A stretch of DNA of 12,974 bases, from assembly GCA_041500405.1 (NCBI GenBank), contig JBGQMB010000025.1:1-12974 (forward strand), given 5' to 3'. This document shows positions 9,001 through 12,000 of the stretch, one piece after another. Numbering within the stretch: the stretch's first letter is position 1; the number at the start of each line of letters is the position of its first letter. This DNA comes from Candidatus Micrarchaeia archaeon (GTDB lineage Archaea > Micrarchaeota > Micrarchaeia > Anstonellales > J096). Made by a program: the position numbers.

Positions 9001-12000
9001 TTTTGAGAAGTCTGTATTCCGGATTTGGCTTTTTCAGCACGCTTTCATACAGGCAGATGGAGTCGGGCCTGAAAGTCCCGAAGTCGGTTGCACAATATTT
9101 TTCAACAAACGATTTCGCATTGTCCGTTTTTCCCTGGATTCTGGCAACAGTCAGGTGCAATTTTGCCTCCCTGCCTTCCTCAATCCTGAACGCCTTTATC
9201 ATCACGTTGGCGTTCCTTTTCATCCCTGCCCCTTCAACGCCGACCCACGCTATTCTGACAAACTCGGGGTTCGGGAACACGCCCGCGCCTTTCAGCGTAA
9301 CGTCCCCTTTCTCAAACTTCAGGCCGGCCAGAACCTTTTCCGCGTCCTCCTGTTTCATTTCGCCAAGGAACGCAAGCGTAATGTGAAGGTTCTCGCGCGG
9401 AATAATCTTCACGTTCGGGCCCTCAAGCGACTTCGCCGCCTCGCACACCCTGTCCAAAATTCCGTCCGGAATGTCAACTGCGACGAAAAGCCTCATGGAT
9501 GGATGATGCAAGGAAAGATATATAATTTATCTGCTGCCGTCCGCCCATTTCACAGAACACAAACTTATTTTATTGTTTATTTTAATGGGGAGATATGCTT
9601 AAAAACTGTTATAAGCAGCGTTATTATCGATGTTCAATGAAAGATTGATGCCCGTTTCAAAACTAAATCCAAGAATAAAGAGATGCTTATCCACACTGCA
9701 GATTTTGGACAGCGCGCCGCTCACCGAAGACACAGTGAAGGCCGCCTATAGGACATTGGCAATGAGATATCATCCTGACAAAAATCCCGGCAACACGGAT
9801 ATCGGGGCAAAATTCAGGGAAGCGACTGATGCATACCATGAAATGAAGAGATTATTTGAAAGCTCAGGCCAAGAAACAATCCAACTTGAAACAGAACCCA
9901 ACATAAAAAGCAGGGACTTGCTAAAAAAAGGATTTTCCTCTGCAGTGGAAAGGCTGTTGAGGGAAAAGGATGAAGCGGATAAAGGGAGGAAAGACGCATC
10001 CATCTATGAAATGCCAAGGGAATATGTGCAAAGGCCATTTTCAGATACGGTGCGTTTGCATATGCAGAAGATAGAAAGGATATTCCTTCTCGAACAGCCT
10101 GCATTGGACAAAAACCAGTCTGTTGACGAAATAGTAATATCCATATTCGGCGTAGAACCGGAAAGCCCTGTTGTTGCGCAAGCGCGCAAAGTTTTTGATG
10201 AAAGCCAAAAATCGAAAAAGGACTTCGTAGATGCGCTATCCCTGGCATACTGGATAACTGAGATGTTCGGGGGCGCGTCACCGCAAAAAGCGCTGGAAAG
10301 AACGGCAAAATTTCTTGAATGCGGCGATAAAGCCCAAATGAAAATGGCAGCGGGCTGCGCATTGGCCTCTCTGGATGCGGACTTGCATGTGATGATGGAA
10401 CCGAAAAAGGAAGGAAAGAGATATTCCATGGCATTTGATGAGCTGTACGGCCTGATTTTCCGCTCAATAAAAACCGACGGAGAAATGGACCAATACGGTT
10501 TATTGATGAAAGAGGCGCAAAAATGCGCCTTGCGTTCCCAAAGACCCCTGCTGTTCAGCGGCAAAAACCACGTCTATGCCGCCAAAATACTGACGAAAGC
10601 GTGCAGGAACAGGAGCATAAGCGAGGCAAGGCTGTTTCTTGACAAGGCCGTTTCCCTTTGCGAAAAGTTATTCTACGATCCTTTTGCAGATAACAGCCTT
10701 GACATGCTGGATGAAAAGATGGCCGCCATGGAAGCCGAAAGGCTGAATTTAGGGCGGACCAGGGGATTCACAGAGCAAGAATTCTTTGACTTGGTGAATC
10801 TTGTCGAAGCGATAAGAAACGACGGCAGCCTGAGTTTCAAGATGAGGCTTCTCACATTCTCCAAATTTATCAATTCATTAAGCGAAACCATACCGAAGGA
10901 TAAAATGTTATATGCAAATACCTTTGTGGATTCCGTCTCCGAAGCCGCCAACGGATATGTTGACGGAAATACGGCGCATATCGTAAATGAATGGAGCAGG
11001 GCATTCAAGAGCCATTTTGGCTCATTCATGCAAAATCCGGAGAGTTTTTGGAGGGCCATGAATGCGATAGGGTGCCTGAGAAAAAACATCGGTAAAAAGA
11101 ATCGCGGCTTCAGGAAACCTTTTTACGTTACCGTGGAGGCTGCCGCATATTGCGGGTCAAGGATAGTGGGCAAAAGCCCGGAAACAAGAAAGATTGAGGA
11201 ACTGCAAAGACTGTGCGACAATTACAGGAACAGCGAATACTTCGTAACCCAAACGAAAAAAGGCAGGCAGACAATCCCGGCAGAAAGCCTCACACCCAAA
11301 GAAAAAAGGATTTACATGGGATTACAAGATATACAGAGGGGCTCTTCAAGAAAAATCAAGACAGAACAAATGAAGGAAATCCTGGATGTTTTCTACGACG
11401 AATGAATGGTCATTTCATTGAGGAAACCAGGTTTTCCAGCCTTTTTATCCCACCCTGCAGCATCAGTGCCAGTTTGGAGTCCAAATCCGCGGTATCCAGC
11501 CCCAATTGTGCCAGCATGCCCTTGGCCCTGGACAGAAGCAAAACCTGTTTTATGTCCTCCGGAGGGGATGTCACAATCAATCCCGTGTACGTTGCATGGT
11601 CTTCAAGCATTGTGGTCAGGCCAACGACAAATTGGCTTTCCCCCTTCGTTAAGGGAACAAGCGCTGTTGTGCCGGTGGTTTGGATATGCCCCAGCAGGTA
11701 TCTGCTTATTAGCTCCTTCAGCGGTCCGGATACGTCCTCACGGGCCAATTTCACGCGGGAAACGACTTCATCAATGTGCTCCAGGGCCTTTGTTGCAATC
11801 TCGTGCTCTTTCACAACATTATGCAGAATCCTTTTTTCCAGTGAAGCAAAATACCTCTTGCTTCTTGCGCGCAGCTCAATCACATTTGTCCTGTTCTCTC
11901 TGTCAAGCTCGACAAACCTGAAAGGCGCGCTCTTTGTGCGGTTCACAAAAGGTTCATAGCAAAGGTAAAACAGCCTGCTTTGCATCTCATTAAGCGTTAT

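Follow-up and report, generated by a model that had tools for sequence, protein, structure and literature searches.

Results

The Locus and Its Two Convergent Genes

The window analyzed here is a whole contig of 12,974 bases (C25) from a Micrarchaeon genome, G000, which comprises 0.92 Mb in 60 contigs at a completeness of 86.12%. Following a conserved core gene for a LigT-like protein, it carries a gene for a J-domain protein (henceforth, the J protein) and, convergent with it, a gene for a second protein that we call the partner (Table 1). The partner reading frame is open upstream of its ATG as far as a TTG at 12891.

Table 1. Features of the J gene, the partner gene and their surroundings, in window positions.
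Feature	Position	Strand	Basis
LigT-like 2′-5′ RNA ligase/phosphoesterase, conserved core gene flanking the island	8987..9511	-	Pfam LigT_PEase, 1.1e-16
Left edge of the island	9512..9533	.	Related-strain contigs follow LigT to 9533, then diverge
TATA-box-like element GATATGCTTAAAA; its end is 25 nt upstream of the J gene ATG (9630)	9592..9604	+	Sequence, motif scan
J-domain protein gene (g00746, P0001; 591 aa, class C)	9630..11405	+	ORF, family alignment, AF2 model
J domain, residues 14–81 (helices 14–22, 33–47, 56–79)	9669..9872	+	Pfam DnaJ and model matches
HPD tripeptide, H48-P49-D50	9771..9779	+	Translation; aligned with HPD of solved J domains
Variable charged linker, residues 82–136	9873..10037	+	Low pLDDT, gap-rich alignment
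All-alpha, helical-repeat-like C-terminal domain, residues 137–591	10038..11402	+	phmmer, alignments, model
Partner gene, 486 aa from the ATG at 12870	11410..12870	-	Convergent with J gene, 4 bases from its stop
Second GATATGCTTAAAA copy, ending 25 nt before the partner ATG	12896..12908	-	Motif scan
32-nt copy (94%) of the ThrRS 3′ end	12943..12974	+	blastn; last 32 nt of the contig

The reading frame of the J gene and its J domain with HPD had been described before and were recovered here; the HPD occupies residues 48–50. DnaJ (PF00226) is the only Pfam family found in the J protein (residues 28–70, E 1.7e-10; 41.3 bits, the cut-off being 27.8), and residues 80–591 have no Pfam match at E ≤ 1; in six-frame translation the same model reaches 45 bits at C25:9699-9839. 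Thirty-two solved J-domain sequences are similar to the J protein at E ≤ 1e-3, that of E. coli DnaJ among them. The HPD, which in known J proteins is the signature that triggers ATP hydrolysis by Hsp70, sits in ...LAMRYHPDKNPGN... and aligns with the HPD of solved J domains as well as with that of the 15 family members having an N-terminal J domain. Together with the flanking residues of helices II and III, it is the best-conserved part of the family alignments. Since Pfam detects neither the DnaJ_C domain (PF01556) nor the zinc-finger domain (PF00684) in it, the J protein belongs to class C and not to the canonical classes A or B. The linker is gap-rich and unconserved in the family alignment, with pLDDT values below 50 at residues 85–98 and 120–133, and the C-terminal domain has motifs of its own in the family, among them TVEAAAYCG and two nearly invariant tyrosines, Y443 and Y562.

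Both genes appear to be equipped for expression. It is reasonable to assume from the sequence that GATATGCTTAAAA at 9592–9604 would be the promoter of the J gene and that the transcript would be leaderless. Across the genome, TTTAAA and TTAAAA peak 20–29 nt upstream of ATG start codons (97+35 of 254 and 65+26 of 175 occurrences), and the TATA-like boxes of the J gene and the partner gene have the spacing usual for G000. The region of the second GATATGCTTAAAA copy forms, with 9564–9604, an inverted repeat of 41 nt (83%).

Predicted Structure

With the family alignment, AF2 modeled the J protein at a mean pLDDT of 81.9 and a pTM of 0.65, reaching 87–97 over residues 11–80; from the single sequence the pLDDT was 45.6 and the model unusable. 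The predicted J domain matches the solved 2guz_B at a VIA Z of 8.8 (rmsd 2.1 over 64 residues), about 25 more solved J domains at Z 5–7.6, and 1xbl at a TMt of 0.61 with 34% identity. The model thus gives the J protein a predicted compact helical J fold. For the C-terminal domain the fold search gave no clear match (Z ≤ 6, or Foldseek E ≥ 0.05 with TM ≤ 0.23), and the weak look-alikes are all helical repeats: mTERF, designed repeats and TAL effectors. These weak matches are no evidence for a new fold, since the domain was modeled only inside the whole protein. Sequence profiles of the PDB yielded nothing better than E 0.17 for either gene.

Relatives of the J Protein

The earlier note had presented the roughly 520 residues that follow the J domain as having no relative among 5.8 billion proteins, a claim that did not survive. 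When residues 80–591, a query devoid of the J domain, were compared exhaustively by phmmer with 1.84 billion representatives, 14 other proteins were found at E ≤ 1e-3 (E 1.4e-18 to 6.9e-4, six of them at E ≤ 1e-10). The alleged lack of relatives was therefore an artifact of word-index searching, which with the whole J protein had found only the protein itself and DnaJ matches confined to the J domain, and with a J-free profile only its own cluster; the partner profile likewise retrieved its own cluster alone. Eleven of the 14, the full-length ones, have an N-terminal Pfam DnaJ domain, while the remaining three are J-less, two of these being without a start methionine. In the alignments, family members are colinear with the J protein over its entire length. 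The two named relatives come from Woesearchaeota MAGs; one bears the annotation “hypothetical protein”, the other “DnaJ domain-containing protein”. Identity between the J protein and the sampled members is 17–25%, and a neighbor-joining tree (Biopython) is star-like, so no recent donor was identified. A scan of metagenome contigs with the J protein yielded 70 pattern matches, none of them a relative, and the protein atlas had no usable match to residues 80–591.

The family is thinly spread. A profile search of 151 genomes of the order of G000 found a full-length match in G000 only (profile positions 4–573 of 574), and the module described below occurs in one of 401 sampled genomes of its phylum, again G000. 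In the phylum of G151, a Woesearchaeota MAG, it occurs in 6 of 401; a search of the order of G151 at E ≤ 1e-30 gave 1 of 301, at a threshold too strict to be informative. Both same-genus genomes, G013 among them, are without the J gene.

A Two-Gene Module

In G531, G659, G678, G151 and G502 the J-family gene is immediately followed by a homologue of the partner (tblastn E 6e-58 to 1e-24), and the homologue of G278 is fragmentary, split across two frames. Thus, the J gene has a convergent, adjacent partner in all seven holder genomes, and because this adjacency is kept throughout, the two can be regarded as a module. As judged from the sequences, it is a J-protein/partner module of DPANN archaea, unnamed until now and defined here. 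In this respect the J gene is not the orphan that the earlier note had described: an intact J domain in a lineage without Hsp70, DnaJ and GrpE stands, but the gene belongs to a rare two-gene module whose other holders are Woesearchaeota-type genomes.

The partner family comprises proteins of about 460–490 residues with 20 invariant positions in the alignment. It corresponds to no family in Pfam, the PDB, PADLOC or PHROG, the Pfam search of the partner family giving single weak matches. The possibility that the J protein and the partner are paralogues was rejected (best BLASTP E 0.064). One partner-protein pattern scanned against viral contigs gave 17 pattern matches and no relative, and the best the protein atlas offered for the partner was one viral cluster at 0.76, below a useful level. 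PADLOC had nothing for either protein, one homologue showing weak Csm2/GajB fragments; among PHROGs only the J domain matched, and no viral hallmark was found. In G151 the module is surrounded by housekeeping genes, with no mobile-element gene among them.

All six other holders encode an Hsp70 of their own. This is weak evidence that the module depends on Hsp70, since 85 of 101 sampled genomes of the phylum of G151 have one and the chance of six out of six is then about 0.35.

A Variable Island between LigT and ThrRS

The module lies within a species-specific, variable, low-GC island between the LigT and ThrRS genes. On the left, three related-strain contigs show 18 differences each over 9407–9533 and continue into loose ends behind 9533. 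On the right, the copy of the ThrRS 3′ end at 12943–12974 is probably the island edge: the ThrRS gene of G000 stands at the start of another contig (C41:2175-298), and in G013 ThrRS directly precedes LigT (G013:C14, 81% DNA identity to the LigT of G000). The G013 gene at the position of the module is ThrRS, which is unrelated to the J protein and the partner. Among 545 long ORFs, the J gene has a GC content of 45.5%, in the 3rd percentile, and a GC3 in the 6th; the partner gene falls in the 5th and 8th percentiles, respectively. The stretches 7761–8555 and 8990–9533 are adjacent in G013 at 80–81% DNA identity, and the AdK gene, a 113-aa gene and LigT have 65–70% DNA identity in G012. Parts of the island in contigs of four sediment runs are identical to it (0 differences), which leaves no variants for a selection test; the sequencing runs listed as containing the sequence include no RNA run.

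The proposal that the J gene ends a run of ankyrin-repeat genes holds in part. Pfam does find five such genes at 1164–7617 and one at 8563–8985, but three conserved genes (AdK, the 113-aa gene and LigT) separate them from the J gene, and Ank_2 has 92 matches on 23 contigs of G000. With ankyrin genes throughout the genome, their link with the J gene is weak.

Hsp70, GrpE and J Domains in the Family and the Order

Six-frame searches confirmed that Hsp70 (PF00012) is found in none of the 19 family genomes, i.e., G000 and 18 relatives, the controls being positive in 12 of 14 cases, and that G000 is the only one of the 19 with a J domain (0 of 18 relatives for PF00226), both as previously noted. 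GrpE exceeds its cut-off in none of the 19, with a single sub-threshold match of 23 bits in G005. Hsp70 is present in most of the order (110 of 151 sampled genomes), from which it follows that the family lost it, and DnaK, DnaJ and GrpE are reported for the ARMAN group in PMC3564930. The best reading is that the family had already lost DnaK, DnaJ and GrpE before the module arrived in G000.

Of the 41 sampled genomes in the order that lack Hsp70, eight encode J-domain proteins, namely G000 and seven others. Seven proteins from six of these other genomes were checked for HPD; the six scanned with Pfam are class C, and all six keep HPD, as does the protein of G042. None of the J proteins of the other Hsp70-negative genomes shows similarity to the J protein of G000 beyond the J domain, and between those of G042 and G124, which were compared with each other, no homology outside the J domain was found either. 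These cases hint that J domains can be of use in Hsp70-negative genomes of this order. The literature searched on J-domain proteins in DPANN and in archaea without Hsp70, with term look-ups in PMC8166112, PMC12874294 and PMC10410713, gives no account of J proteins in Hsp70-less DPANN.

Discussion

We tentatively put forward, as the most likely reading even if at somewhat less than even odds, that G000 harbors an imported class-C J-protein module without a resident Hsp70, in other words, a stranded co-chaperone. By analogy with specialised J proteins, the helical domain would have one specific client or adaptor to bind, for which the partner is the likeliest candidate; triggered by the J domain, an Hsp70 would hydrolyze ATP and clamp onto that client. 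The family of modules as such needs no foreign Hsp70, since all six other holders encode one. The G000 copy looks imported because it is the only one in 401 genomes of the phylum, lies in the third GC percentile and is absent from the same-genus genomes; we infer that G000 received the pair by horizontal transfer, after the losses in its family. There, the J domain would be without a resident partner and presumably idle. The module may be a fairly recent, still-intact passenger, or it may be kept for an Hsp70-free job of the helical domain and the partner.

Some of our observations go against a mere passenger. Both genes are intact, with 591 and 486 codons and a TATA-like box each. Moreover, the J protein keeps 0.83 of the residues conserved in its family at the 75% threshold, as compared to 0.53–0.97 in Hsp70-accompanied copies, and the partner scores 0.55 as compared to 0.55–0.70. 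An intact, conserved pair in a genome of 0.92 Mb does not sit easily with the idea of a passenger that has no use.

The best placed of the alternatives, albeit an unlikely one, is that the J protein, perhaps together with the partner, enters a host archaeon through the cell–cell connections of DPANN and there directs the host Hsp70 to whichever target the helical domain selects. J proteins of viruses and those injected by bacteria do act on the Hsp70 of another cell. An HPD and a J fold that are intact where resident Hsp70, GrpE and DnaJ are missing from 19 of 19 family genomes speak in favor of this, and so do the integrity, native-type promoters and family-typical conservation of both genes, the J-domain proteins of the eight Hsp70-negative genomes in the order, with HPD kept wherever it was read, and the very large ankyrin-repeat repertoire of G000. 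Large repertoires of this kind are common in host-manipulating symbionts. We also count in favor the nanotubes between a Micrarchaeon and its host reported in PMC11329633, the cytoplasmic bridges exchanging nutrients and even enzymes that it attributes to suggestions in earlier studies, and the DnaK of Thermoplasmatales, which are the generally suggested hosts of such archaea according to PMC3564930.

On the other hand, the six other holders, having their own Hsp70, need no foreign one, the gene occurs in a single species within the phylum sample of G000, and the J proteins of other Hsp70-negative genomes share only the J domain with it. G000 is a sediment organism; one cultured Micrarchaeon has a Sulfolobales host, and to our knowledge Sulfolobales are without Hsp70. 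In agreement with the earlier note, the sequence of the J protein shows neither an N-terminal hydrophobic signal or signal peptide nor any other mark of export, and we know of no sequence mark carried by the transfer routes of DPANN. We give still less credence to the broader proposal that the module is a tool of DPANN symbionts for commandeering host Hsp70, the helical domain and the partner selecting the target in the host, which G000 would expose as a natural experiment since no Hsp70 but that of its host would be within reach, with the scattered class-C J proteins of Hsp70-less Micrarchaeia as further cases.

It could also be hypothesized that, across the whole family, the J domain works independently of Hsp70 or on something other than Hsp70, e.g., by giving the partner protein a structural element or an interaction surface. 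A module that stays intact without resident Hsp70 and a strictly conserved gene pair would fit; however, HPD and the residues of helices II and III are the best conserved, which is the pattern expected of contact with Hsp70, and we know of no established non-Hsp70 partner of any HPD-bearing J domain, so that we deem this reading improbable.

An Hsp70 gene within the unassembled 14% of G000, for instance separately imported, would provide the J domain with a resident partner. The completeness of 86.12%, the 60 contigs and the uptake of foreign genes by G000 leave room for it, whereas none of the 18 relatives, five of which are at least 90% complete, has Hsp70, GrpE and canonical DnaJ are missing as well, and no candidate Hsp70 fragment is found in G000; we consider it very improbable. 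Finally, mis-binning of a contig from another organism that has Hsp70, to which its short length and a tetranucleotide correlation of 0.90 (0.93–0.97 for contigs of similar size) might point, is hardly conceivable and was rejected on the synteny of AdK, the 113-aa gene and LigT with G013 and G012; many other contigs of G000 carry ankyrin genes of this type, and the TATA geometry is that of the whole genome.

The J protein can be compared with several known systems. HscB/Hsc20, reportedly a class C (type III) J protein that serves a single client, IscU, together with HscA, resembles it in that an HPD-bearing J domain precedes an unrelated helical domain for client binding (putatively so in the J protein), without DnaJ_C or zinc finger, and that the J gene is linked to the gene of a specific partner; the solved HscB J domains match the model of the J protein at Z 5.3–5.6. 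It differs in that the C-terminal domain of the J protein is far larger, about 450 residues, with no detectable similarity to HscB_C, that the partner belongs to no known family and that G000 encodes no Hsp70. HopI1 of Pseudomonas syringae, a J-domain effector reported to be type III-secreted and to target the Hsp70 of plants, shares the HPD-bearing J domain and a presumed Hsp70 in another cell, but it belongs to a bacterium that has a DnaK itself and injects by a known system, whereas no secretion signal or apparatus is linked to the J gene. Polyomavirus T antigens offer a J domain from an Hsp70-less genome that lives off another cell, with matches to the model at Z 6.5 (1faf) and Z 6.2 (2pf4_E); G000, in contrast, is a cellular organism in which no viral hallmark was found.

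An archaeal case is DnaJ-Fer of Thaumarchaeota, which PMC3564930 describes as a class-C J protein gained by horizontal transfer, an archaeal J-domain fusion with a patchy spread explained in this way, whose J domain suggested a DnaK in Thaumarchaeota. Its C-terminal domain is a ferredoxin, that of the J protein a helical repeat. A DnaK is reported to be present in Thaumarchaeota.

J domains have one established job, switching on Hsp70. A cellular lineage that has lost Hsp70, DnaJ and GrpE and keeps an intact, promoter-equipped J protein along with its partner is thus a rare natural test, and the case bears on whether J domains can act across cells or without Hsp70. If the host Hsp70 were the target, this would be the first effector of an archaeal symbiont aimed at a host chaperone and a first molecular handle on host manipulation by DPANN; if the module is stranded, it would be an ordinary horizontal transfer of modest interest. 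As to method, the 14 relatives illustrate that word-index searching can miss proteins that exhaustive HMMER recovers.

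A Class-C J-Domain Protein with Distant Relatives

P0001, the J protein of the Micrarchaeia genome G000, carries DnaJ as its sole Pfam domain (residues 28–70, E 1.7e-10, 41.3 bits against a cut-off of 27.8), with the HPD tripeptide read from the translation at residues 48–50, within ...VKAAYRTLAMRYHPDKNPGN... It is matched by 32 solved J-domain sequences at E ≤ 1e-3, including E. coli DnaJ, and an AlphaFold2 model built on a family alignment of 19 sequences (mean pLDDT 81.9, pTM 0.65) shows a J fold at residues 14–81 resembling 2guz_B (Z 8.8, rmsd 2.1 over 64 residues) and 1xbl (TMt 0.61). 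Given the Pfam match, the HPD, the solved-structure matches and the modelled fold, the J domain is real and, as far as the model goes, looks functional. A Pfam scan found neither DnaJ_C nor a zinc finger in P0001, which is therefore a class-C J-domain protein. Its C-terminal domain is predicted to be all-alpha and helical-repeat-like; a fold search with this domain, modelled only within the whole protein, returned no clear structural relative (Z ≤ 6).

The earlier note had reported a J domain with HPD in this protein, a family devoid of Hsp70 and no relatives for the other ~520 residues; the first two claims stand, but the third does not. Word-index searching with P0001 gave only its own cluster and DnaJ proteins matching the J domain alone, and a J-free profile brought no improvement. 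Exhaustive phmmer with residues 80–591 against 1.84 billion representatives recovered 14 other proteins at E ≤ 1e-3, six of them at E ≤ 1e-10 (best 1.4e-18), with 22–35% identity to P0001. Eleven have 538–666 residues and an N-terminal Pfam DnaJ domain; the remaining three, two of them without a start Met, lack a J domain and align to the C-terminal part only. The family alignment is colinear all the way from J domain to C-terminus; TxEAAAYAG is one of the shared motifs, and two tyrosines are near-invariant. Two named relatives, annotated as “hypothetical protein” and “DnaJ domain-containing protein”, belong to “Candidatus Woesearchaeota archaeon” MAGs, and another is encoded on a 1.56-Mb contig of G151, also a Candidatus Woesearchaeota archaeon MAG. 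Among J-domain co-chaperones, a known class, P0001 represents a new family.

The J gene and its convergent partner form a two-gene module. Homologues of the partner lie directly downstream of the J-family gene, also convergently, in five genomes (G531, G659, G678, G151 and G502), and G278 has the partner in pieces; the association holds in all seven genomes with a J-family gene, G000 included. These homologues reach tblastn E values of 6e-58 to 1e-24, with 22–31% identity over ~430–460 residues. Six partner sequences share 20 invariant residues, and searches of Pfam, PDB, PADLOC and PHROG gave no match to the family.

Loss of the Hsp70 System

Hsp70 (PF00012) was found in none of the 19 genomes of G000's family, five of which are at least 90% complete, by a search that was positive in 12 of 14 control genomes. 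GrpE was likewise above the cut-off in 0/19, and the J domain is confined to G000 (0/18 relatives), as claimed before. In contrast, Hsp70 occurs in 110 and a J domain in 115 of 151 genomes sampled from the order, with Hsp70 present in 10 of the 12 families, and PMC3564930 describes DnaK, DnaJ and GrpE for both the ARMAN group and Thermoplasmatales. The whole Hsp70 system has therefore been lost by this family. Set against the family-wide absence, an Hsp70 gene in the unassembled part of G000 (916,473 bases in 60 contigs, 86.12% completeness) is very unlikely. Many Hsp70-positive genomes of the order also carry, a few hundred bases away from canonical dnaJ, a second short J-domain ORF (~92–142 aa).

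Probable Horizontal Origin of the Gene Pair

The J-free profile detected the domain in 6/401 genomes sampled in G151's phylum and in 1/401 in G000's own phylum, namely G000, which is also alone among the 151 order genomes in having a full-length match. In the same-genus genome G013, LigT directly follows ThrRS, an archaeal enzyme with the archaea-specific editing domain, whereas in G000 the J gene and partner come after LigT. The G000 ThrRS is found on another contig, C41, at its start; the final 32 bases of C25, the contig that constitutes the window, copy the ThrRS 3′ end (94%). Among contigs from four sediment metagenome runs, those of related strains follow LigT as far as 9533 and then diverge, and others cover parts of the island with identical sequence. 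Relative to 545 long ORFs, the J gene falls at the 3rd percentile in GC (45.5%) and the 6th in GC3, its partner at the 5th and 8th. Taken together, the distribution, the LigT/ThrRS context, the divergence at 9533 and the low GC mark the pair as a species-specific island, probably gained by horizontal transfer. Since all other holders were found in G151's phylum (the MAG is named Woesearchaeota), this is the likely source; no close donor appeared among the genomes sampled, with identities of 17–25% and a star-like NJ tree.

Mis-binning of C25 is so improbable that we reject it: the AdK (adenosine-specific kinase)/113-aa and LigT stretches have 80–81% DNA identity to adjacent stretches of G013:C14 and 65–70% to G012:C7, window-type Ank genes occur on many further G000 contigs, and the tetranucleotide correlation, slightly low, is 0.90.

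A small gene for a hydrophobic, membrane-type product (~84 aa, by eye) lies between the C41 start and the ThrRS end in G000, against a gene-free gap of 60 bp between ThrRS and LigT in G013; the genus is thus variable at the ThrRS–LigT junction.

State of the Pair and Its Putative Promoters

No sign of decay was seen in the ORFs, promoter-like elements or conserved columns of the pair. Both ORFs are intact, and GATATGCTTAAAA precedes each, ending 25 nt before the ATG. Across 1000 long ORFs of G000, TTTAAA(A) peaks 20–29 nt before ATG starts, which suggests that transcripts are mostly leaderless; the spacing of GATATGCTTAAAA would correspond to archaeal TATA-box geometry on leaderless genes. P0001 retains 25 of the 30 columns whose conservation among the other family members reaches 75% or more (0.83; other members, 0.53–0.97), and the partner scores 0.55 versus 0.55–0.70. 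Such intactness is compatible with ongoing selection as well as with a transfer so recent that decay would not yet show. A longer form of the TATA-like TTTAAA(A) box, (G/A)ATATG(C/T)TTAAAA, occurs seven times in the genome at ≤1 mismatch, three of them within the window.

What the J Domain May Act On

Specialised J proteins suggest, by analogy, that the helical domain would pass a specific client or adaptor on to an Hsp70 after binding it; the conserved partner is the most plausible candidate for that role. For the other six holders the Hsp70 could be the resident one; G000 has none. Single-client J proteins such as HscB are closest to P0001 in logic. All six other holders possess a resident Hsp70, which shows that the family normally lives beside one; dependence on it does not follow: Hsp70 is present in 85 of 101 genomes sampled from G151's phylum, so that chance alone would give six out of six in roughly one case in three (our own arithmetic). 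We tentatively favor the view that the module is imported and its J domain stranded; it would either be a passenger that has stayed intact or be retained for something that the helical domain and partner do independently of Hsp70.

The earlier note took the Hsp70 of a host cell as the likely target, an interpretation that is partly supported and that we regard as possible but doubtful. In its favor, the G000 pair is intact, PMC11329633 reports cell–cell bridges and nanotubes for DPANN archaea, including a Micrarchaeon, and J-domain proteins occur in 8 of 41 Hsp70-negative genomes sampled in the order, including genomes of genera g23 (Hsp70 in 0/7) and g22 (1/8), where Hsp70 is consistently missing and which look like further independent losses. 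For six of these proteins, a Pfam scan detected the J domain alone; the HPD is kept in these six and in the G042 protein. Against it, none of the J proteins from the other Hsp70-negative genomes is related to P0001 outside the J domain, P0001 bears no export mark, the other holders of its family own an Hsp70, and PMC11329633 names a Sulfolobales member as host of one cultured Micrarchaeon. Sulfolobales are not known to possess an Hsp70.

The J proteins of the seven other Hsp70-negative genomes, with HPD, differ widely in architecture: the J domain is N- or C-terminal, its companions are helical repeats or a zinc ribbon with membrane segments and a coiled coil, and one protein has merely 188 aa.

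That the J domain of P0001 itself has a role independent of Hsp70 seems improbable. Viral J proteins and the injected effector HopI1 are in a situation like that of P0001: in each case, for HopI1 reportedly, the genome that encodes the J domain lacks the Hsp70 it would act on. Unlike these, G000 is the genome of a cellular symbiont with no known delivery route. In the literature searched, J proteins of DPANN archaea that lack Hsp70 are not described.

Features of contig C25 (plain coordinates) and related loci elsewhere
Feature	Location	Strand	Remark
J gene P0001	9630-11405	+	ORF, 591 residues
DnaJ match	9699-9839		six-frame search of G000
Partner gene	11410-12870	-	486 residues from ATG; convergent; 4 bases from J gene's stop
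Ank genes	1164-7617; 8563-8985 (small gene)		
AdK + 113-aa gene	7761-8555		
LigT	8990-9533		
5′-open ORF	2-817	-	contig left end
129-aa ORF	860-1249	-	
327-aa ORF	8657-9640	+	
Longer TATA-like form	9592-9604; 12896-12908; 5416-5428		
Small gene beside ThrRS	G000:C41:35-288		
Other Ank contigs of G000	C1, C2, C5-C9, C11, C12, C14, C16, C19-C21, C24, C32-C34, C36, C37, C44, C45		
J proteins, seven other Hsp70-negative genomes	G042:C2:1732-3048 (L214); G124:C25, C57 (L026, L031); G116:C6 (L027); G054:C10 (L029); G114:C81 (L030); G097:C19 (L028); G141		
Second short J-domain ORF, examples	G106:C4:72672-72842; G136:C2:118529-118699; G094:C29:81172-81336		

Ankyrin Genes and Other ORFs

G000 has a very large ankyrin repertoire, considering that its archaeal genome measures 0.92 Mb: Ank_2 is matched 92 times at E ≤ 1e-5, across 23 contigs. 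Ank genes of similar type are present in both same-genus genomes. Relative to G013, the small Ank gene is an insertion between the 113-aa gene and LigT. The 129-aa ORF is 45% identical over 80 residues to the N-terminal part of the Ank gene at 5481–6521 (6300–6539, −), and the two may share a common non-Ank N-terminal module of this gene family. The 327-aa ORF, without a Pfam match, lies on the strand opposite to the small Ank gene and LigT, overlapping both, and is most likely not a gene. The 5′-open ORF recurs at the start of C51 (window 84–393; G000:C51:1–325; 89% DNA identity, 85% protein identity over 110 residues), a contig that also carries a homologue of the 503-aa protein found near AdK in G013; the presence of this gene at the ends of two contigs is the probable reason why the assembly breaks there.
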